Part shown: one piece after another, positions 11,575-52,483 of the stretch
How positions within the stretch are numbered: the stretch's first letter is position 1
Layout: each line of letters opens with the position of its first letter
Source of the DNA: Veillonellales bacterium
GTDB lineage: Bacteria > Bacillota > Negativicutes > JAAYSF01
NCBI GenBank assembly: GCA_039680175.1
Contig: JBDKTO010000074.1
Coordinates: 229,724-293,723, forward strand
Direction: 5' to 3'
DNA: 64,000 bases
Position numbers and translations under genes: made by a program
The notes under the pieces: model-generated
Databases searched by the model: none
What the model was told of the DNA's origin: nothing
Seen by the model: the letters and a program-made list of their open reading frames with translations, nothing else

Positions 11575-11730
11575 TATGCTCATCAAGAGTTGGCGGAGGG
11601 ACTGGCCCGATGAAACCGCGGCAACCATTTGGCTGTGCCAAAACGGTGCCAATTCCTGCAGATTTTCTGCAAGATGGGAGAGTGACTATCGCCCCTCCTG
11701 CCAATGCAATGGGAGCTTTTTTTTTAAGAT
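11575..11730 (+). ncRNA. SAM-I (S-box) riboswitch with a U-run terminator, leader of metK
   Basis: CTCATCAAGAGTTGGCGGAGGGACTGGCCCGATGAAACCGCGGCAACC...GGTGCCAATTCCTGCAGA...GATGGGAGAG matches the S-box consensus core. A T9 run at 11717-11725 follows a short stem. Confidence 0.85.
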
Positions 11731-11812
11731 TTTCTCCTGCTAAAGTTTTGGATTGCCTTTTTAAAACAGGCGTTTGACCTTTTAACAGGATATTATGAAA
11801 GGAAGGTGCAGT

Positions 11813-13003
11813 ATGGAAAACAAGCGTGTACTATTTACATCCGAATCGGTAACCGAAGGCCATCCGGATAAAATTGCCGATCAGATTTCCGACAGCGTGC
11901 TGGATGCAATTATTGCCCAGGATCCAATGGGCCGTGTTGCTTGCGAAACACTTATCACAACTGGTATCGTGCATGTTGTGGGTGAAATTACAACCAATTG
12001 TTATGTCGATATTCCCAAAATTGTTCGGGATACAATCAGAGATATCGGTTATACGCGGGCAAAATTTGGCTTTGACTGTGATACTTGCGGCGTCATGGTT
12101 TCCATTGACGAACAATCGCCGGATATTGCTTTAGGCGTCGACAAAGCTTTGGAAGCAAAAAAAGGGCAAATGGATGCGATTGAAGCAATTGGTGCCGGTG
12201 ATCAAGGCATGATGTTTGGTTATGCCACCAATGAAACACCGGAATATATGCCTTTAACCATCGCTCTGGCCCACAAATTGGCCCGCCGTTTAGCAGAAGT
12301 ACGGAAAAATAATGAACTCGACTATTTGCGGCCTGACGGAAAAACTCAGGTAACGGTTGAATATGTGGATGGTAAGCCGGTAAGAATTGATACAATCGTA
12401 ATTTCAACTCAGCATAGTCAGGATGTTGAGTTAGCGACGATTGAGAAAGATCTGATTGAAAAAGTCATTTTGCCGATTGTTCCGGCTGAATTGCTGGATA
12501 GCAAGACAAAATATTACATCAATCCTACCGGCCGTTTTGTCGTAGGCGGTCCGCAAGGCGACTCCGGTTTAACCGGCAGAAAAATTATCGTTGATACTTA
12601 CGGCGGTATGGCGCGCCATGGAGGCGGTGCATTTTCCGGCAAGGATCCAACAAAAGTGGATCGTTCCGCCGCTTATGCCGCTCGCTATGTAGCAAAAAAT
12701 GTAGTCGCTGCCGGTTTAGCGGATAAATGTGAAATACAGTTGGCCTATGCAATTGGCATTGCCCGTCCTGTTTCGATTATGGTTGAAACCTTTGGCACGG
12801 CGAAAGTGGCTGAGCAGTTAATCAAAACACTGATTGAAAAACATTTCGATTTACGTCCTGCAGGTATCATTAAGACATTAGATCTGCGGCGTCCCATCTA
12901 TCGTCAAACCGCAGCCTATGGGCATTTTGGCCGCACGGATATTGATTTGCCCTGGGAGAGAACCGACAAAGCAGAGCTATTACGCCGCGAGGCACATCGG
13001 TAA
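11813..13003 (+). CDS. metK: S-adenosylmethionine synthetase
   Basis: [20 protein letters not shown]... and [23 protein letters not shown] lies 5 nt upstream of the ATG at 11813. Confidence 0.95.
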
Positions 13004-28559: not shown

Positions 28560-28740
28560 ATGAATAAGTGAGCCTTTGGGGCAAGGTGAAAAAGAGCAAT
28601 CTTTTAATTCCTGACCGGCGGTAATTAGCCCGCGAGCCATTTGGCAGATCCGGTGAAATCCCGGAGCCGACAGTAGAGTCTGGATGAAAAAAGGCAAAGT
28701 AATAGAAATTATATATTTCTATTACTCTATTTTTCTGACT
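28560..28740 (+). ncRNA. FMN riboswitch (RFN element) with attenuator terminator
   Basis: ...CTTTGGGGCAAGGTGAAA...TTCCTGACCGGCGGTAATTAGCCCGCGAGC...GATCCGGTGAAATCCCGGAGCCGACAGTAGAGTCTGGATG matches the RFN consensus. A 12-bp hairpin agtaatagaaat/atttctattact plus T-run follows at 28697-28735. Confidence 0.85.
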
Positions 28741-28790: not shown

Positions 28791-28816
28791 GCCCCTTGAG
28801 AGGAGAAAATTTGGTT

Positions 28817-45703: not shown

Positions 45704-46120
45704 GTGGCTAAATATACCGGACGCACGCGCGGCAATACAAAACTACAAAAACCGTCTGGTGCGGTTGTGCTTATTTTCCTGGGAGCCATTGTCAGTCTGG
45801 CAGTATCTTTAGTATGTACCCTGTTCTTATCGTTGGTAAGCTTGTTATCGGAAGGCTTTTTTATTGAGCGCTATATGGAATATATTATGGTCGCAGTAAC
45901 AATGGTCAGCATTTTTATTGGCAGTGTTTTTGCCGCCCAGAAGGCGGAATCGAAAGGGCTTCTTATCGGAATTGCTGTTGGTTTTATTTATGTAATTGTT
46001 TCCGTTGCTGTTGGTATGAAAATCAGTCAGGAAACCATTACCCTTTTAGTATTCGCAAATAAGTTTGTAGCAGGAATTGCAGCCGGCGCATTGGGGGGGC
46101 TGATTGGTATCAATTTATAG
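45704..46120 (+). CDS. Small four-TM membrane protein (TIGR04086/YrzE-like; family assignment is tentative)
   Basis: 138 aa with four predicted hydrophobic helices. RBS GGGAGGGAAGG precedes the GTG start. Confidence 0.55.
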   Translation: MAKYTGRTRGNTKLQKPSGAVVLIFLGAIVSLAVSLVCTLFLSLVSLLSEGFFIERYMEYIMVAVTMVSIFIGSVFAAQKAESKGLLIGIAVGFIYVIVSVAVGMKISQETITLLVFANKFVAGIAAGALGGLIGINL

Positions 46121-46134
46121 CCTGCTGCTTTCTT

Positions 46135-46156
46135 TGAGGCCATTGGCCTCTTTTTT
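46135..46156 (+). terminator. Intrinsic terminator
   Basis: gaggcc att ggcctc tttttt. Confidence 0.65.
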
Positions 46157-46372
46157 GCGTAGTGCAGAAACATATTGTCTTACTATTGGTGCCATTTTCT
46201 CTGATAAGTCGACCAGTATGGCCAGTAAAAATCCGGCTACTTGATAAACAATTTAGGTAAAATATTGAATAGAGACTGGTAAGAGAGAAGGGATTAGCAG
46301 AACACATTACGAATAGTAAAATAGCATTGAATTTTAATAGCTGTAATCTTATTATGAATGGCAGGGTGAAAA

Positions 46373-47167
46373 ATGATTAAAATCGCGATAATCGGTGGAA
46401 CAGGAGTATATGACCCTAGTATTCTAAATAATATTCAGGCTCATGAAGTTTCAACTCCCTATGGAACAGTCACTTTTAAGGTCGGTGAATTTAATGGTAA
46501 AGAAATTGCATTCATTCCAAGACACGGAAGCACTCATGCAATTCCGCCCCATCTTATAAACTACCGGGCCAATATTTGGAGTATGAAAAAGATCGGCGTT
46601 GAAAATATTATTGCCACAACGGCTGTCGGTTCTCTCAATCCGGCAATGAAACCTGGTGATTTTGTTTTGGTGGATCAATTTTTGGATTTTACAAAGAACC
46701 GGGTAAGCACCTTCTATGAAGGCGGAGAACGCGGTGTGGTGCATGTCGATGTTACCAGCCCTTACTGCTCCAGATTGAGGCATATCCTTGTTGCTGCCGC
46801 GCAGAAACATAAGCTCAGTATTCATCAGCTCGGTACATATGTTTGCACGGAAGGGCCGCGGTTTGAAACCGCGGCGGAAATTGCTATGTTCGCAAAACTT
46901 GGCGGCGATTTAGTCGGTATGACAAATGTGCCGGAGGCTGTGTTAGCGCATGAAGCGGAGATGTGTTATTCTACGGTGTCGATGGTTACGAATTATGCTG
47001 CCGGCATTTCGCAAACAGCTTTGACTCACAGTGAAGTCGTTGCGACGATGAAGCACAATGCTGAAGGCATTAAGCAGCTTATTATGACTGCTATTGACGA
47101 TATGAACCTGGATGAAGATTGCAACTGCCGGCATACGTTAGCCGAATACGGCGGATTTAAATTATAA
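46373..47167 (+). CDS. mtnP: MTAP-family 5'-methylthio-purine-nucleoside phosphorylase, predicted methylthioinosine-specific (Asp to Asn at the purine-6 recognition site)
   Basis: 264 aa aligning with MTAP (GTGVYDP...HLINYRANIWS...GMTNVPEAVLAHEAEMCY). In ...SMVTNYAAG the Asn (residue 207, nt 46991-46993) aligns with Asp220 of the human MTAP motif MATDYDC. Confidence 0.85.
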   Translation: MIKIAIIGGTGVYDPSILNNIQAHEVSTPYGTVTFKVGEFNGKEIAFIPRHGSTHAIPPHLINYRANIWSMKKIGVENIIATTAVGSLNPAMKPGDFVLVDQFLDFTKNRVSTFYEGGERGVVHVDVTSPYCSRLRHILVAAAQKHKLSIHQLGTYVCTEGPRFETAAEIAMFAKLGGDLVGMTNVPEAVLAHEAEMCYSTVSMVTNYAAGISQTALTHSEVVATMKHNAEGIKQLIMTAIDDMNLDEDCNCRHTLAEYGGFKL

Positions 47168-47172
47168 AGGCG

Positions 47173-48246
47173 GTGCAAGTCTTGCGTTCAATGGAATGGG
47201 ATAATTCTTGTTTAAAACTATTAAATCAAACTTTACTGCCTGGTAAAGTCGAATATAGGGAATGCCGGGATTATCGGGCAGTGGCGGAAGCAATCCGCCG
47301 TTTGGAAGTTCGCGGTGCTCCCGCGATTGGCGCGGCAGCGGCTTTTGCCTTCGTATTAGGAGCCAGGGAGATTGTGACCGAGAATGATTTTTTTGCGAAA
47401 CTGGCGGGAATTGCTGCGGAACTTAAACAAACCAGACCAACGGCAATCAATCTTTCTTGGGCTATTGAAAAGATGAGGGCAGTAGTGAATGCGTATCCGG
47501 GCAGCAAGGAAGATAAGACCGAATTGCTAACAGCGTTAGAAACAGAAGCGATCAATATCTATCAGCAGGACGAGAACGTGAATCACCGCATCTCTCAATA
47601 TGGAGCAAGTTTATTTGACAAACCGACAGCCGTATTAACTCATTGTAATGCCGGTGCTTTGGCAACTGTAGCCTGGGGAACCGCATTAGGGGTTATTCGC
47701 GCTGCCTGGTCACAAGGAAAAATAGACCGGGTATATGCCGATGAAACCCGTCCCTTGTTGCAGGGAGCAAGACTGACAGCCTGGGAATTACAACAGGATA
47801 ATATTCCGGTTACTTTAATTACCGACAATATGGCTGGCTGGATCATGAAAAAAAAGCTGGTACAATCAGTCATCGTCGGCGCCGACAGAATAACGGCCAA
47901 CGGTGATGTAGCAAATAAAATCGGCACTTATAGCGTAGCTGTACTGGCCAAACAGCATAATATTCCTTTTTATGTAGCTGCACCGGTTTCAACTTTTGAC
48001 TTTGCTATGTACAGTGGGGAGGATATCCCAATTGAAGAGCGTCAAGCCGAAGAAGTAACCGTATTTGCCGGCCACCGGATCGCACCGGAAAGCATCGACG
48101 TATTTAATCCGGCTTTTGATGTTACGCCAAGTTCCTTCGTTACGGCAATTATTACCGAGTTCGGCCTTCTGCGGTCTCCTTATTCCAGCGCGATCAGCAA
48201 ATTAAAAATCATGAAGGATGGGATGCACAATGGAATCAATGATTAA
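47173..48246 (+). CDS. mtnA: Methylthioribose-1-phosphate isomerase (eIF-2B alpha/beta/delta-like)
   Basis: 357 aa with ...RGAPAIG...THCNAGALAT... motifs. The start may instead be the TTG at 47182. Confidence 0.85.
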   Translation: MQVLRSMEWDNSCLKLLNQTLLPGKVEYRECRDYRAVAEAIRRLEVRGAPAIGAAAAFAFVLGAREIVTENDFFAKLAGIAAELKQTRPTAINLSWAIEKMRAVVNAYPGSKEDKTELLTALETEAINIYQQDENVNHRISQYGASLFDKPTAVLTHCNAGALATVAWGTALGVIRAAWSQGKIDRVYADETRPLLQGARLTAWELQQDNIPVTLITDNMAGWIMKKKLVQSVIVGADRITANGDVANKIGTYSVAVLAKQHNIPFYVAAPVSTFDFAMYSGEDIPIEERQAEEVTVFAGHRIAPESIDVFNPAFDVTPSSFVTAIITEFGLLRSPYSSAISKLKIMKDGMHNGIND

Positions 48247-49471
48247 AAATATCAGTCTTGCCCCTCAGGGACATGATAAAATTAACTGGGTGAGGCAGTT
48301 TATGCCGGTTCTCAATATTTTAAATGATAAATTATCCCACGACAGGCCATTAAAGGGGAAAAATATGGTTTTAACAATGCATTTAGAAGCTAAAACAGCC
48401 TATTTGGCACTGGTGCTAAAAAATGCCGGCGCAAATGTAGCCGTTACCGGCAGCAATCCGTTATCGACCCAGGACGACGTAGCGGCAGCCTTAGCGGAGC
48501 AGGGAGTGACCGTGCTTGCCTGGTACAACACTTCAGCCGAAGAATATAAACAGTTGCTGCATAGAGCATTAGATACTAAACCGAACATTATTGTCGACGA
48601 TGGCGGCGATTTGGTATCTTTACTGCATACAGAACGCCGGGAACTGCTTGACAATATCTGGGGTGGATCGGAAGAAACGACTACAGGCGTAATTCGTCTA
48701 AAAGCCTTAGCCGCAGAGGGGCGACTGAAATTTCCGATGATAGCGGTAAATGACGCCTACTGCAAGTATCTGTTTGATAACCGGTATGGTACGGGGCAGT
48801 CTACTTGGGATGGAATTATGCGGACAACCAATCTTACTGTAACCGGTAAAACAGTTGTCATTGCCGGATATGGCTGGTGCGGCAAAGGAGCTTCCATGCG
48901 GGCGAAGGGGCTGGGGGCTAATGTGATCATAACCGAAGTAAACCCGATTAAAGCCATAGAAGCCGTTTTTGATGGCTTTCGGGTTATGCCGATGCAGGAA
49001 GCCGCGAAACTGGGCGATATCTTTGTCACGCTAACCGGATGCAAAGATGTGATCCGTCAGGAACATTTTGCCGTGATGAAATCCGGAGCGATTTTGGCTA
49101 ACGCCGGCCACTTTGATGTGGAAATCAATAAAACGGATTTGTCGCAAGCGGCAGTATCCCGCCGGGATGTTCGTAAAAATATCGAAGAGTTCGCCATGGC
49201 TGACGGACGTAAAATTTATCTGCTGGCCGAAGGGCGGTTAGTAAATCTTGCCGCCGGCGACGGACATCCTACAGAAATCATGGATTTGTCTTTTGCTATG
49301 CAAGCTTTGGCCGTACTGCATATTGCCGAACATCATGGTGAAATGGAAAATAAAGTATATACTATAGAGGATGCAATGAACAACCGTGTAGCCTCGCTTA
49401 AATTGGGAGCAATGGGGCTGGCAATTGATCATTTATCCGCGGAACAGCAGCAATATCTCAAGCAGGCATGA
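48230..49471 (+). CDS. ahcY: Adenosylhomocysteinase-family hydrolase (SAH or S-inosylhomocysteine hydrolase)
   Basis: NAD-binding GYGWCGKG and other AhcY motifs. The ATG at 48230 has RBS GAAGGATGGG. It overlaps the mtnA 3' end. Confidence 0.85.
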   Translation: MESMIKNISLAPQGHDKINWVRQFMPVLNILNDKLSHDRPLKGKNMVLTMHLEAKTAYLALVLKNAGANVAVTGSNPLSTQDDVAAALAEQGVTVLAWYNTSAEEYKQLLHRALDTKPNIIVDDGGDLVSLLHTERRELLDNIWGGSEETTTGVIRLKALAAEGRLKFPMIAVNDAYCKYLFDNRYGTGQSTWDGIMRTTNLTVTGKTVVIAGYGWCGKGASMRAKGLGANVIITEVNPIKAIEAVFDGFRVMPMQEAAKLGDIFVTLTGCKDVIRQEHFAVMKSGAILANAGHFDVEINKTDLSQAAVSRRDVRKNIEEFAMADGRKIYLLAEGRLVNLAAGDGHPTEIMDLSFAMQALAVLHIAEHHGEMENKVYTIEDAMNNRVASLKLGAMGLAIDHLSAEQQQYLKQA

Positions 49472-49500: not shown

Positions 49501-50166
49501 ATGAACGGATATTCTGAAATTAAGCTGGAAATTTTAACGGCTGGGATTGCTCTTTTTAAAAAAAATCTGGTAACCGGGACCTGGGGAAATCTTAGTTCGC
49601 GAGTGCCCGGAACTGATTTATTGGCTATCACCCCTTCCGGACGGGATTATCGAAAATTGCAAAATGATGATATCGTCATTGTTGGCAGAAATGGTCTTAC
49701 GGTACAGGGGCATTTAATACCATCATCTGAATTGCCGCTGCATTTGGCCATTTATAAGGCACGGCAGGATGTACAAGCAATTGTGCATACCCATAGTGTT
49801 TTTGCCAGCGCTTGTGCAGTTGCCCGCAGGGCGATTCCGCCTATTATTGAGGATTTGGTTCAAGTAACAGGCGGTAGTGTTGAGGTAGCCGAATATGCAC
49901 TACCGGGAACGGCGGAACTGGCACGAAACGTGGTAACAGCATTGGGAAACCGCAGCGCAGCCCTACTCGCCAATCATGGCGTTGTTTGCTGTGCCCGAAG
50001 CGTAACAGAAGCGATGACAGCTTGCGAACTGGTGGAAAAAGCAGCCGAAATTTATCTGTACGCCCAACAGCTTGGCGGTGCCGTTACTCTTAATCAACAG
50101 GATGTTGCGACGATGCATGAATTTTACGTAAAGCATTATCGAAAACTTCAAGGAGACGATGAATAA
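49501..50166 (+). CDS. Class II aldolase/adducin-family protein (MtnB dehydratase-like or Ald2/fuculose-phosphate-aldolase-like)
   Basis: 221 aa with ...GTWGNLSSR...HTHS... metal-binding His motifs of class II aldolases. Confidence 0.75.
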   Translation: MNGYSEIKLEILTAGIALFKKNLVTGTWGNLSSRVPGTDLLAITPSGRDYRKLQNDDIVIVGRNGLTVQGHLIPSSELPLHLAIYKARQDVQAIVHTHSVFASACAVARRAIPPIIEDLVQVTGGSVEVAEYALPGTAELARNVVTALGNRSAALLANHGVVCCARSVTEAMTACELVEKAAEIYLYAQQLGGAVTLNQQDVATMHEFYVKHYRKLQGDDE

Positions 50167-51453
50167 GTGGCAAAAATTTTGTTAAAAAGCGCCGAAGCAT
50201 TGACGCCGGATGGTGCGATAAAGCAGCATGATATTGCAATTGAGGGTTGTCTCATTTCCTATGTCGACACAATTCCTGCCGGCTGGCAGGCCGACCGTAT
50301 TATTGACTGCAGCGGCAAACTTGCGATACCCGGTATGATAAATACCCATACCCATGCGGCCATGACACTGTTTCGCAGTTATGCCGACGATATGCTCCTA
50401 ATGGATTGGCTGCAAAATAAAATCTGGCCGGCAGAAGCCAATTTAACCGAGAAAGACGTATATTGGGGAACGCTGCTGTCTATTGCCGAAATGCTGAAAT
50501 CAGGAACAACTACTTTTGCCGACATGTATTTTTTTATGCCGCAAGTAGCCCGAGCAGTTGCTGAGAGCGGTATCCGCGCGGTTTTGTCCCGCGGTATGAC
50601 CGGCGTTGCTCCCAATGCTGAACAGGCGTTGATTGAGAGTGAAGACTTCTTTAAACAGTTTCATCAGGCCGCTAATGGGCGCATAACCGTCATGCTTGGA
50701 CCCCACGCCCCCTATACCTGTCCACCGGAGTATCTGAGAAAAGTGGTAGCATTAGCGGAACGATTACAAGCGGAAATTCACATTCACTTAGCGGAAACAA
50801 AGGATGAAGTGGAAAATTGCCTGAAACAATACGGCAAATCACCGATTGCTTTGATGGATGAAATCGGCGTACTGGATTGCGGCGTATTAGCCGCTCATTG
50901 CGTTCATGTGTCACAGGAAGATATAGCGATTATGCAGAAGAAGAAAGTTCGTGTTGCACATAATCCGGGAAGCAACATGAAACTGGCCAGCGGGATTGCG
51001 CCGGTACCGGAAATGTTAAGTGCCGGATTATGTGTGGGATTGGGTACCGATGGCGCTGCCAGCAACAACAATCTGGATATGATCAGGGAAATGCGTTTAG
51101 CAGCCACGCTCCACAAAGTACATACGCTGGATCCTTTGGCTATACCGTCCAAAACGGCAGTGGATATGGCTACAGTCAACGGGGCAAAAGCACTGGGGCT
51201 GGACCATATAACCGGTTCTATTGCCGTTGGTTATAAAGCAGATATCGCTTTATTGGATATTCATGCTCCCCATTGGTATCCGACACATGATAAACTATCG
51301 CTTCTGGCTTATTCAGCCGCCGCCAGCGATGTGCATACCGTGCTGGTAGACGGACAAATTTTACTGGAGAACAGGCAATTAACAACTATTGATGAAGAAC
51401 AATTGCTTTATGAGGTGCAAAAACGGGGAGTGCGTCTTGTAGAAAAACTATAA
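50167..51453 (+). CDS. mtaD: 5'-methylthioadenosine / S-adenosylhomocysteine deaminase (amidohydrolase superfamily)
   Basis: 428 aa with PGMINTHTHAAMT (HxH metal site) and the MtaD/TM0936-like pattern. The GTG start abuts the upstream stop. Confidence 0.85.
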   Translation: MAKILLKSAEALTPDGAIKQHDIAIEGCLISYVDTIPAGWQADRIIDCSGKLAIPGMINTHTHAAMTLFRSYADDMLLMDWLQNKIWPAEANLTEKDVYWGTLLSIAEMLKSGTTTFADMYFFMPQVARAVAESGIRAVLSRGMTGVAPNAEQALIESEDFFKQFHQAANGRITVMLGPHAPYTCPPEYLRKVVALAERLQAEIHIHLAETKDEVENCLKQYGKSPIALMDEIGVLDCGVLAAHCVHVSQEDIAIMQKKKVRVAHNPGSNMKLASGIAPVPEMLSAGLCVGLGTDGAASNNNLDMIREMRLAATLHKVHTLDPLAIPSKTAVDMATVNGAKALGLDHITGSIAVGYKADIALLDIHAPHWYPTHDKLSLLAYSAAASDVHTVLVDGQILLENRQLTTIDEEQLLYEVQKRGVRLVEKL

Positions 51454-51517
51454 TGGCAATTGCGATTCATAGAAGAATGTTATAAAATAGTAACAAGTAA
51501 TGGAGAGGGGTAGTATA

Positions 51518-51865
51518 ATGCGTGCCTTAAATTTTTATTCCTCAAATTATCACAATCAATTGGTTTGCCGACGTAAAACCTGCACGATTCGCCGTGGCGA
51601 TAAAACAGATAAGTATTCGGAAGGTGATATTGTCTGGGTAACAGTAGGGAAACGCTTCTCCCAAAGAAAGAAAATTTATACTGCCGTTATTGACCGAGTT
51701 CTTGTTAAGCCAATCTCTCAGCTTACAAAAGAAGATTTGCAAGGCGAAAATCCAGATATTACTAGCGTCGATGATTTAATGGACTTTTTGCAGTCTGTTT
51801 ATGATAAGACGTTGACCCTCAGTGACACTGTCACTGTGGTTTATTTCTCTGAAATCATCGAATAG
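51518..51865 (+). CDS. ASCH-domain protein, YqfB-like (PUA-like fold; predicted N4-acylcytidine amidohydrolase family)
   Basis: RRKTCTIRRGDK...EGDIVWV... resembles the YqfB ASCH core. RBS GGAGAGGGG lies 7 nt upstream of the ATG at 51518. Confidence 0.55.
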   Translation: MRALNFYSSNYHNQLVCRRKTCTIRRGDKTDKYSEGDIVWVTVGKRFSQRKKIYTAVIDRVLVKPISQLTKEDLQGENPDITSVDDLMDFLQSVYDKTLTLSDTVTVVYFSEIIE

Positions 51866-51907: not shown

Positions 51908-52483
51908 ATGTCTGACAAAAAAATTCCAGTGGGTATTTCCGCACGGCACGTACATGTTTCCCGGGAAGATCTTGATATTCTTTTTGGCTCAGGCTATGAG
52001 CTTACTGTTAAGAAGGCTTTGTCTCAGCCGGGACAATTTGCCAGTAATGAAACAGTAGATTTGGTAACAGAGAAAAACACTTTTAAAAAGGTACGAATTT
52101 TAGGACCAATACGTAACGCAACTCAAGTGGAACTTGCTTTGACGGATGGAATGAAACTTGGCTTAAAGCTGCCAGTCAAGGATTCCGGGAATCATGCGGG
52201 AACACCCGGTATTACGATTGTAGGACCTAAAGGGTCGGTAGATATTAAACAGGGAGTCATCGCTGCCTGCCGTCATATTCACATGACTCCGGCCGATGCC
52301 GCGCAGCATAATGTGAAAGATAAAGAAATTGTGCAAGTAAAATTTGAAGGTGACCGTGCATTGATATTTGATAAAGTCTTGATTCGAGTCAGCGATACTT
52401 GTAAATTAGATATGCATATTGATACTGATGAGGCAAATGCTTGTATGTGTAAAAATGGGGATACGGTTGAAATTATAAAGTAG
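51908..52483 (+). CDS. pduL: PduL-type phosphate acyltransferase (phosphate propanoyl/acetyltransferase)
   Basis: 191 aa with the duplicated PduL fold (...GISARHVHVS..., ...AACRHIHMTP...). No other pdu/eut genes lie nearby. Confidence 0.8.
   Translation: MSDKKIPVGISARHVHVSREDLDILFGSGYELTVKKALSQPGQFASNETVDLVTEKNTFKKVRILGPIRNATQVELALTDGMKLGLKLPVKDSGNHAGTPGITIVGPKGSVDIKQGVIAACRHIHMTPADAAQHNVKDKEIVQVKFEGDRALIFDKVLIRVSDTCKLDMHIDTDEANACMCKNGDTVEIIK

Follow-up and report, generated by a model that had tools for sequence, protein, structure and literature searches.

Which purine nucleoside is cleaved by the first enzyme of a five-gene operon in a Veillonellales bacterium? The question concerns an open reading frame (ORF) at positions 46373-47167 of a 64,000-nucleotide stretch of contig JBDKTO010000074.1 (assembly GCA_039680175.1), hereafter the window, whose product resembles 5'-methylthioadenosine (MTA) phosphorylase (MTAP). 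An earlier inspection of the bare DNA (the sequence-only reading) had described an MTAP homologue with asparagine in place of the adenine-recognising aspartate, and had predicted a 5'-methylthioinosine (MTI) phosphorylase linked to a neighbouring deaminase. The interpretation favoured here, with a probability of about 0.7, is that the protein is a 6-oxopurine phosphorylase, which would act after the deaminase on MTI and 5'-deoxyinosine and probably also on inosine. The purine-site residues, the split of the family into two subfamilies, the conserved gene order and the fingerprint of a neighbouring S-inosyl-L-homocysteine (SIH) hydrolase are direct observations, from which we infer the substrate specificities and the flow through the pathway.

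The ORF and its codons are as described. The encoded protein contains a PF01048 domain (175.2 bits), and its AF2 model (pLDDT 94.2) matches MTAP structures with TM-scores of 0.90-0.92 in Foldseek, placing it in the NP-I superfamily of trimeric phosphorylases. The motif CYSTVSMVTNYAAG comprises residues 198-211, within which T206-N207-Y208-A209 lies opposite T219-D220-Y221-D222 of human MTAP (1CB0) and opposite TDYD in three archaeal MTAPs in HMMER alignments to solved structures. Both aspartates of MTAP are replaced, the first by asparagine, as had been claimed. In a residue-by-residue map against human MTAP, only four mapped positions differ, Ser178, Asp220, Asp222 and Val233 being occupied by Glu165, Asn207, Ala209 and His219, respectively; the replacements by Glu165 and His219 had been overlooked in the sequence-only reading. 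In a genuine MTAP, the two aspartates Asp220 and Asp222 contact N6 and N7 of adenine and Ser178 lies on the N1 side; this combination is absent, with Glu165, Asn207 and Ala209 instead. The phosphate and ribose site is MTAP-like: T10, R50, H51, H55, T83, A84, H124, F164, M183, T184 and T206 correspond to T18, R60, H61, H65, T93, A94, H137, F177, M196, T197 and T219 of the human enzyme, and all ten residues of the MTAP-type phosphate/ribose set are conserved.

The purine site follows the enzymes that act on 6-oxopurines. In alignments with human MTAP, Pseudomonas aeruginosa MTI phosphorylase (PaMTIP) and trimeric purine nucleoside phosphorylases (PNPs), Glu165 and Asn207 match the Glu and Asn of the 6-oxopurine enzymes, including those of PaMTIP in its hypoxanthine-bound structure 3OZB and those of the trimeric PNP 3LA8. 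When the 71 residues around the specificity positions were searched alone against the PDB, PNPs and PaMTIP scored above any MTAP, whereas the whole protein is nearest to MTAPs. The top matches of this segment were Thermotoga maritima PNP (1VMK), Escherichia coli xanthosine phosphorylase XapA (1YQQ), Cellulomonas PNP (1C3X) and PaMTIP (3OZB), and the human PNP equivalences of Glu165, Asn207 and His219 were taken from the coordinates of the human PNP match in the same search. The motifs GP.(F/Y/L)ET.AEI and (T/V)N.AAG are common to these PNPs and PaMTIP, and L(S/N)H.EV is common to the four PNPs, with Met at that His in PaMTIP. Glu165 is predicted to be the acceptor of the purine N1-H. The corresponding pair in human PNP, Glu201 and Asn243, is an experimentally established switch of base specificity, since the double mutation E201Q:N243D lets the enzyme use adenosine-type substrates (PMC2799393), and N256D reverses the base preference of Kluyveromyces lactis PNP (PMC5074518). 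The structure 3OZB is listed with hypoxanthine bound (PMC5738077). The assignment of Asn207 to a 6-oxopurine pocket, already made from the sequence, is borne out by these data, and Glu165 joins it as a second determinant. Judged by its residues, the window protein is a chimera like PaMTIP, with an MTAP-like sugar and phosphate site and a PNP-like purine site, and it carries one further PNP-like residue, His219, at the 5' position. In PNP, the equivalent His257 contacts the 5'-hydroxyl group. Because this PNP-type histidine is retained, inosine is probably also a substrate and the enzyme is probably not exclusive for MTI; the prediction of an MTI phosphorylase is supported with this caveat.

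Glu165, Asn207 and His219 are invariant in all 120 of the closest database homologues (at least 69% identical), so Asn207 is no sequencing accident. Across a sample of 150 representatives of 50%-identity clusters, the signature E-N-(A/G/C) is found in about three quarters and S-D-D, which includes human MTAP, in about one quarter, with almost no intermediates. In a neighbour-joining tree computed after masking of the four signature columns, E-N-x and S-D-D are separated by a single bipartition (114 versus 28) and one state change. The asparagine that had been described as a change in an MTAP is therefore real, but it is the hallmark of an old and large subfamily rather than a local change. PaMTIP (3OZB) and the Pyrococcus furiosus 6-oxopurine nucleoside phosphorylase lie on the E-N branch, and the window protein falls into a 16-member clade with the Thermococcus protein of locus L051. 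It is 37.5% identical with PaMTIP, 42-47% with true MTAPs and 57% with a Thermococcus E-N-type protein. With P. furiosus PF0853 (AAL80977.1), called '6-oxopurine nucleoside phosphorylase' in UniRef, it shares 56% identity over 262 residues and the same E-N-A-H signature, and PF0853 also has a C-terminal CxC; by these measures, PF0853 rather than PaMTIP is the closest characterised relative. Position 219 is His in 78 and Tyr in 2 of all 80 E-N genome loci, so it lacks the variance from which co-variation with the SIH hydrolase could be read. The C-terminal CxC of the window protein (DCNCRH; Cys250 and Cys252; 47120-47128) is nearly invariant in the E-N alignment; its counterparts are RCGCKD in P. 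furiosus PNP and CSCC in Sulfolobus MTAP, and it is absent from the Veillonella orthologues. On the S-D-D side, the representatives P0230 (793 aa), P0233 (598 aa), P0160 (519 aa), P0170, P0180 and P0250 are well over 270 aa long, with the MTAP domain at one end, and are apparently fusions.

Public annotation gives three names to this one orthologue group. The exact protein is entered at NCBI as 'MAG: S-methyl-5'-thioadenosine phosphorylase [Veillonellales bacterium]'. Within the group of 72-75% identity, the orthologues of Sporomusa carbonis and S. rhizae are named 'S-methyl-5'-thioinosine phosphorylase', and those of Lucifera and Thermosinus are 'Probable 6-oxopurine nucleoside phosphorylase' in UniRef, so the 6-oxopurine prediction was already present in the annotation of orthologues. 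The divergence arises because the family models TIGR01694 and NF006599 accept each other's members. The window protein scores 313.7 bits on TIGR01694 (MTAP; cut-off 274.85), which PaMTIP (3OZB) also passes with 320.4, and 267.4 bits on NF006599 (MTI phosphorylase, EC 2.4.2.44; cut-off 223), which the S-D-D MTAP 1V4N also passes with 238.9. The NCBIfam equivalogs were rejected as a discriminator between the two types, since each accepts proven members of the other; the signature of four residues (E/S, N/D, A/D and the 5' residue) separates them cleanly, which the two models cannot. Classical trimeric PNP models remain under their cut-offs (NF006054, 141.8 versus 218; TIGR01697, 130.5 versus 197.1).

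The phosphorylase gene, preceded by an AGGGTGA ribosome-binding site 6 nt 5' of its ATG, is the first of a five-gene operon for the phosphorylase, MtnA, an SIH-type AhcY, a class II aldolase and an MtaD-type deaminase (Table 1). The genes follow one another at a 5 nt gap, a 29-nt overlap, 29 nt and 0 nt, and the overlap of mtnA with ahcY (48218-48246), together with the abutting aldolase and deaminase genes (50166/50167), suggests translational coupling. The best-scoring models for the aldolase are FucA-like, with the MtnB models under cut-off, and its PDB matches 6BTD and 6BTG are the Bacillus thuringiensis 5-deoxyribulose-1-phosphate aldolase. It is predicted to be the 5-deoxyribulose-1-phosphate/methylthioribulose-1-phosphate aldolase of the dihydroxyacetone phosphate (DHAP) shunt. 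The gene set by which this shunt is recognised, namely a phosphorylase or kinase clustered with MtnA and a FucA-like, non-MtnB class II aldolase, is present, and the MtaD-type gene in the same operon would couple the phosphorylase to an MTA deaminase. This amidohydrolase, which also matches 4GBD and T. maritima TM0936 (1P1M) in the PDB, is predicted to deaminate MTA, S-adenosylhomocysteine (SAH) and 5'-deoxyadenosine.

The AhcY of the window is called adenosylhomocysteinase by family models. Its top PDB matches are 7R37 and 7R38, the latter being the P. furiosus enzyme (PMC10978960), and 7R3A, which was deposited as an S-inosyl-L-homocysteine hydrolase. Koeppl et al. (2024) reported that SAH-hydrolase homologues with the motif HxExK prefer SIH, and those with HxTxE(Q) prefer SAH (PMC10978960); the window enzyme bears the HxExK fingerprint (HLEAK). 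Among AhcY proteins that adjoin E-N phosphorylases, 44 of 45 have HxExK, and all four that adjoin S-D-D MTAPs have HxTxE. The lone exception, locus L026, has the SAH-type motif HVTTE and is also among the few E-N loci that lack a deaminase. Two enzymes of the operon, the phosphorylase and AhcY, therefore have base sites of the hypoxanthine type, and hypoxanthine nucleosides would be the products of a third, the deaminase. Published discussion of the SIH route has so far dealt with Euryarchaeota and thermophilic bacteria (PMC10978960).

The neighbourhood was surveyed in one genome per species, giving 80 E-N loci, of which 57 had 5.5 kb or more of downstream sequence and were counted. The tally was 48 for MtnA, 46 for an MtaD-type deaminase, 37 for AhcY and 18 for the aldolase, and the gene order was conserved. 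The loci come from Negativicutes (Veillonella, Megasphaera, Dialister, Sporomusa and Pelosinus), Desulfotomaculia, Moorella, Syntrophomonadaceae, Alicyclobacillus, Tumebacillus and Dictyoglomota. As a control, 80 S-D-D loci from metagenome contigs were used, all confirmed to have S..D, and the count was confined to the 38 whose flank reached 5.5 kb; they contain no deaminase, MtnA once and AhcY four times. The difference for the deaminase (46/57 versus 0/38) gives a Fisher p of 6e-17, uncorrected for phylogeny, and the association between the asparagine and the MtaD deaminase proposed from the single locus is found again across genomes. The near-obligatory MtnA neighbour is what argues for MTI and 5'-deoxyinosine as substrates. 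The order phosphorylase, mtnA, ahcY, (aldolase), mtaD is kept across Bacillota and Dictyoglomota, including Veillonella parvula. Archaeal E-N loci (Thermococcus and Hadarchaeota) have no MtnA, AhcY or MtaD neighbours. At locus L163 (GCA_900142435.1), an E-N-A-S-type phosphorylase lies next to purS/purQ, and a restriction-modification pair (N6_N4 methylase and ResIII helicase) is inserted between it and an Amidohydro_1 gene.

A deaminase-first route can be proposed for the operon. The deaminase would convert MTA, 5'-deoxyadenosine and SAH into MTI, 5'-deoxyinosine and SIH. The phosphorylase would then cleave MTI and 5'-deoxyinosine with phosphate to hypoxanthine and 5-methylthio- or 5-deoxy-ribose-1-phosphate, which MtnA would isomerise to the ribulose-1-phosphates. 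The aldolase would split these into DHAP and methylthioacetaldehyde or acetaldehyde, completing a deaminase-first DHAP shunt. In the third branch, AhcY would hydrolyse SIH to homocysteine and inosine, and the phosphorylase probably also phosphorolyses the inosine thus released. Precedents include Plasmodium, where adenosine deaminase is followed by a PNP with dual activity on inosine and MTI (PMC3885546), and Methanocaldococcus jannaschii, with its DadD/MtiP/SIHH route and promiscuous MtiP (PMC6302742, PMC10978960). A broader proposal, put forward more tentatively at slightly under even odds, makes the operon a bacterial deaminate-first module: MTA, 5'-deoxyadenosine and SAH would all be handled as hypoxanthine nucleosides, with one phosphorylase serving three branches.

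Several points weigh against the route from MTI and 5'-deoxyinosine. The residue at the 5'-methylthio group is hydrophobic in human MTAP (Val233) and in PaMTIP (Met235 in 3OZB), and His219 stands there in the window protein; the MTI-specific PaMTIP thus has Met where the window protein has the 5'-hydroxyl ligand of PNP. The P. furiosus enzyme was reportedly described with inosine and guanosine and is not known to act on MTI or 5'-deoxyinosine. Human PNP, with His257, does not use MTI (PMC3885546). Since PaMTIP has Met at this position and human PNP with its histidine refuses MTI, it is from the gene context that acceptance of MTI is argued. In that context, the deaminase reaches no NCBIfam cut-off, and the aldolase occurs in just 18 of the 57 E-N loci, about one third. 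Gene order within Bacillota is inherited in part, which makes the loci interdependent, and because the two sets also differ in source and taxa, the Fisher p overstates their independence.

The strongest competitor, still unlikely, is a plain 6-oxopurine PNP (EC 2.4.2.1) that would serve purine salvage from inosine and guanosine, with no real role for MTI or 5'-deoxyinosine and with the operon neighbours drawing on other inputs; only its 'inosine only' form competes with the favoured interpretation. The 56% identity and identical E-N-A-H signature shared with the P. furiosus '6-oxopurine nucleoside phosphorylase', the UniRef name of the orthologues, the equivalence of His219 with the 5'-hydroxyl-binding His257 of PNP, and an adjoining SIH hydrolase that would supply inosine all fit it. 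Yet MtnA, whose substrates are 5-methylthio- and 5-deoxy-ribose-1-phosphate, lies directly 3' in 48 of 57 genomes, and ribose-1-phosphate from inosine would require a phosphopentomutase, which the operon does not contain. The MTAP-type phosphate and ribose residues and scores far under the cut-offs of the PNP models also speak against it. Another proposal would turn the operon towards nucleoside-ribose catabolism, unrelated to S-adenosylmethionine (SAM) by-products, with inosine yielding ribose-1-phosphate, an MtnA-like isomerase making ribulose-1-phosphate from it and the aldolase splitting the latter into DHAP and glycolaldehyde. In its favour, the aldolase scores 161 bits with NF053831, a model for the haloarchaeal ribulose-1-phosphate aldolase, and a ribose route through MtnK and MtnA seems to have been proposed for Bacillus, to judge from a title cited in PMC10986504. 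That score, however, is far under the cut-off of 300, the isomerase matches the MtnA equivalog solidly, two thirds of the loci have no aldolase, and the SAH/SIH hydrolase and the MTA/SAH-type deaminase of the operon point to SAM by-products, making this route very improbable.

Two further proposals concern the base rather than the sugar. A phosphorylase that takes both MTA and MTI, with the deaminase as a parallel route instead of an obligatory first step, would agree with the high promiscuity of M. jannaschii MtiP, which uses six purine nucleosides (PMC6302742), with K. lactis PNP N256D, in which a small change broadens the base range (PMC5074518), and with the E-N locus L026, where the deaminase is missing and AhcY is of the SAH type. 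Against this, both adenine-recognising aspartates are absent, a Glu that would pair with N1-H is present, and a deaminase is almost always co-encoded. PaMTIP, moreover, reportedly shows no activity on MTA. Since adenosine is not a substrate of trimeric PNPs that carry this Glu/Asn pair (PMC2799393, PMC5074518), such breadth is quite unlikely in the window protein. A genuine MTA phosphorylase (EC 2.4.2.28), the annotation given to the exact protein in its source metagenome-assembled genome, could appeal to the TIGR01694 score above the cut-off and to an overall sequence and predicted fold nearest to archaeal and human MTAPs. It is hardly credible when TIGR01694 is passed by PaMTIP with a higher score, the counterparts of Ser178, Asp220 and Asp222 are all replaced, the protein groups with the E-N type in a family that divides cleanly in two and the co-encoded deaminase would remove MTA. 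A 6-oxopurine phosphorylase placed after the deaminase is therefore preferred over these proposals.

Table 1. Features of the phosphorylase operon in the window, with the codons of the residues that differ from human MTAP (hPNP, human PNP).
Feature	Position	Strand	Basis or equivalence
Terminator-like hairpin and T-run after the upstream DUF3792 gene	46136..46150	+	Consensus scan; 5' operon boundary
Overlapping pair of sigma-70-like promoter matches 5' of the phosphorylase gene	46294..46355	+	Consensus scan, weak
Phosphorylase ORF, 264 aa, ATG start	46373..47167	+	MTAP family, trimeric NP-I fold, E-N-A-H subfamily
Glu165 codon GAA	46865-46867	+	MTAP Ser178; PaMTIP Glu181 (chain index); hPNP Glu201
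Asn207 codon AAT	46991-46993	+	MTAP Asp220; PaMTIP Asn223; hPNP Asn243
Ala209 codon GCT	46997-46999	+	MTAP Asp222; PaMTIP Ala225
His219 codon CAC	47027-47029	+	MTAP Val233; PaMTIP Met235; hPNP His257
mtnA, S-methyl-5-thioribose-1-phosphate isomerase	47173..48246	+	TIGR00512 441.8 (cut-off 279); NF004326 468.6 (271)
Archaeal-type AhcY, predicted S-inosyl-L-homocysteine hydrolase	48218..49471	+	PDB matches and HxExK
HLEAK, AhcY residues 55-59	48380-48394	+	Fits HxExK
FucA-like class II aldolase, not MtnB	49501..50166	+	PF00596; PDB 6BTD/6BTG 2.6e-32
MtaD/DadD-type amidohydrolase	50167..51453	+	PF01979; 4F0R/4F0S 'MTA/SAH deaminase' 1e-98

Regarding the surroundings of the operon, no riboswitch or leader was detected upstream of it: Rfam gave no match at the gathering threshold nor, within 46100-46400, at E<=1. 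Directly upstream of metK (methionine adenosyltransferase, 11795-13003) is a SAM-I (S-box) riboswitch (78.2 bits, 11577-11680), and the salvage operon, with no detectable riboswitch of its own, is 35 kb from this pair. An FMN riboswitch (102.5 bits, 28568-28699) is found upstream of an ORF starting at 28796. Downstream of the operon, an ASCH-domain protein (51500-51865) is followed by a PduL-type phosphate propanoyltransferase (51908-52483). The ASCH protein has an 82%-identical match in the Sporomusa silvacetica locus L009, about 1.3 kb 3' of its MtaD gene.

The kind of enzyme described here is already known, as the MTAP-family 6-oxopurine enzymes PaMTIP, P. furiosus PNP and M. jannaschii MtiP have been characterised, and nothing in these results would surprise specialists on MTAPs and PNPs. 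The principle of deaminating first has been described in P. aeruginosa, M. jannaschii, T. maritima and Plasmodium (PMC6302742, PMC10978960, PMC3885546). The arrangement at the operon level may be under-described, and no relevant literature tying the deaminase to Negativicutes, Veillonella or Moorella was found. If the operon works as proposed, many anaerobic Bacillota would recycle the waste products of SAM by way of inosine derivatives; the salvaged purine would be hypoxanthine instead of adenine, the sources of homocysteine and DHAP would change, and the choice of inhibitors, between the MT-Immucillin-H and MT-Immucillin-A types, would be affected. Under the more tentative module proposal, the SIH route would be the norm in numerous mesophilic Bacillota, among them the human commensals Veillonella, Megasphaera and Dialister.

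Among known systems, P. furiosus PNP shares the identical motifs TEGPRFETAAEI, VTNYAAG and LTHSEVV with the window protein, and it is reportedly, in work by Cacciapuoti and colleagues in 2007, a member of the MTAP family specific for 6-oxopurines. It differs in being archaeal and hyperthermophilic, and the related Thermococcus and Hadarchaeota loci are devoid of MtnA, AhcY and MtaD. PaMTIP (PA3004, 3OZB) belongs to the same family, with the same Glu/Asn/Ala purine site (Glu181, Asn223 and Ala225) and MTAP-like phosphate residues, but in it His219, Phe164, Thr206 and Tyr208 of the window protein are replaced by Met, Leu, Val and Pro, respectively. PaMTIP is reportedly specific for MTI, and its gene in Pseudomonas is not known to share an operon with that of its deaminase. 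Like the window enzyme in the proposed route, PaMTIP works downstream of an MTA deaminase (PMC6302742). The M. jannaschii system, which was compared by description only, combines DadD, MtiP (MJ0060) and an SIH hydrolase in a similar deaminate-first logic, followed by MtiP and MtnA (PMC6302742, PMC10978960); it is archaeal, its genes are scattered and its 5-deoxyribulose-1-phosphate is used differently downstream (PMC8102628).

Human and archaeal MTAPs (1CB0, 1V4N, 2A8Y and 1WTA) are the best matches of the whole protein and of its fold (42-47% identity, TM 0.9), with identical phosphate and ribose residues. Their Ser178, Asp220, Asp222 and hydrophobic residue 233 are exchanged for Glu, Asn, Ala and His in the window protein, and as the S-D-D type they fall into the opposite branch of the family, with no deaminase neighbour in the 38 control loci. 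Trimeric PNPs (human PNP, 1VMK and 1YQQ) share the triad of Glu, Asn and His with the window protein, as well as the motifs GP.(F/Y)ET.AEI, TN.AAG and L(S/T)H.EV, in contrast to a much weaker overall match (E of about 1e-16 to 1e-24, versus 1e-70 for MTAPs) and another type of phosphate loop. Finally, the DHAP shunt, composed of MtnP or MtnN with MtnK, then MtnA and Ald2/DrdA, resembles the window cluster in its clustered phosphorylase, MtnA and FucA-like class II aldolase (PMC6079011, PMC13474568), whereas the window cluster also contains a deaminase and a hydrolase of the SIH type, with a phosphorylase predicted to be of the 6-oxopurine type. According to a 2026 review, the characterised variants of the shunt are the MtnP-first and MtnN/MtnK-first routes only (PMC13474568); the deaminase-first route, if it operates as proposed, would give the shunt a third mode of entry.

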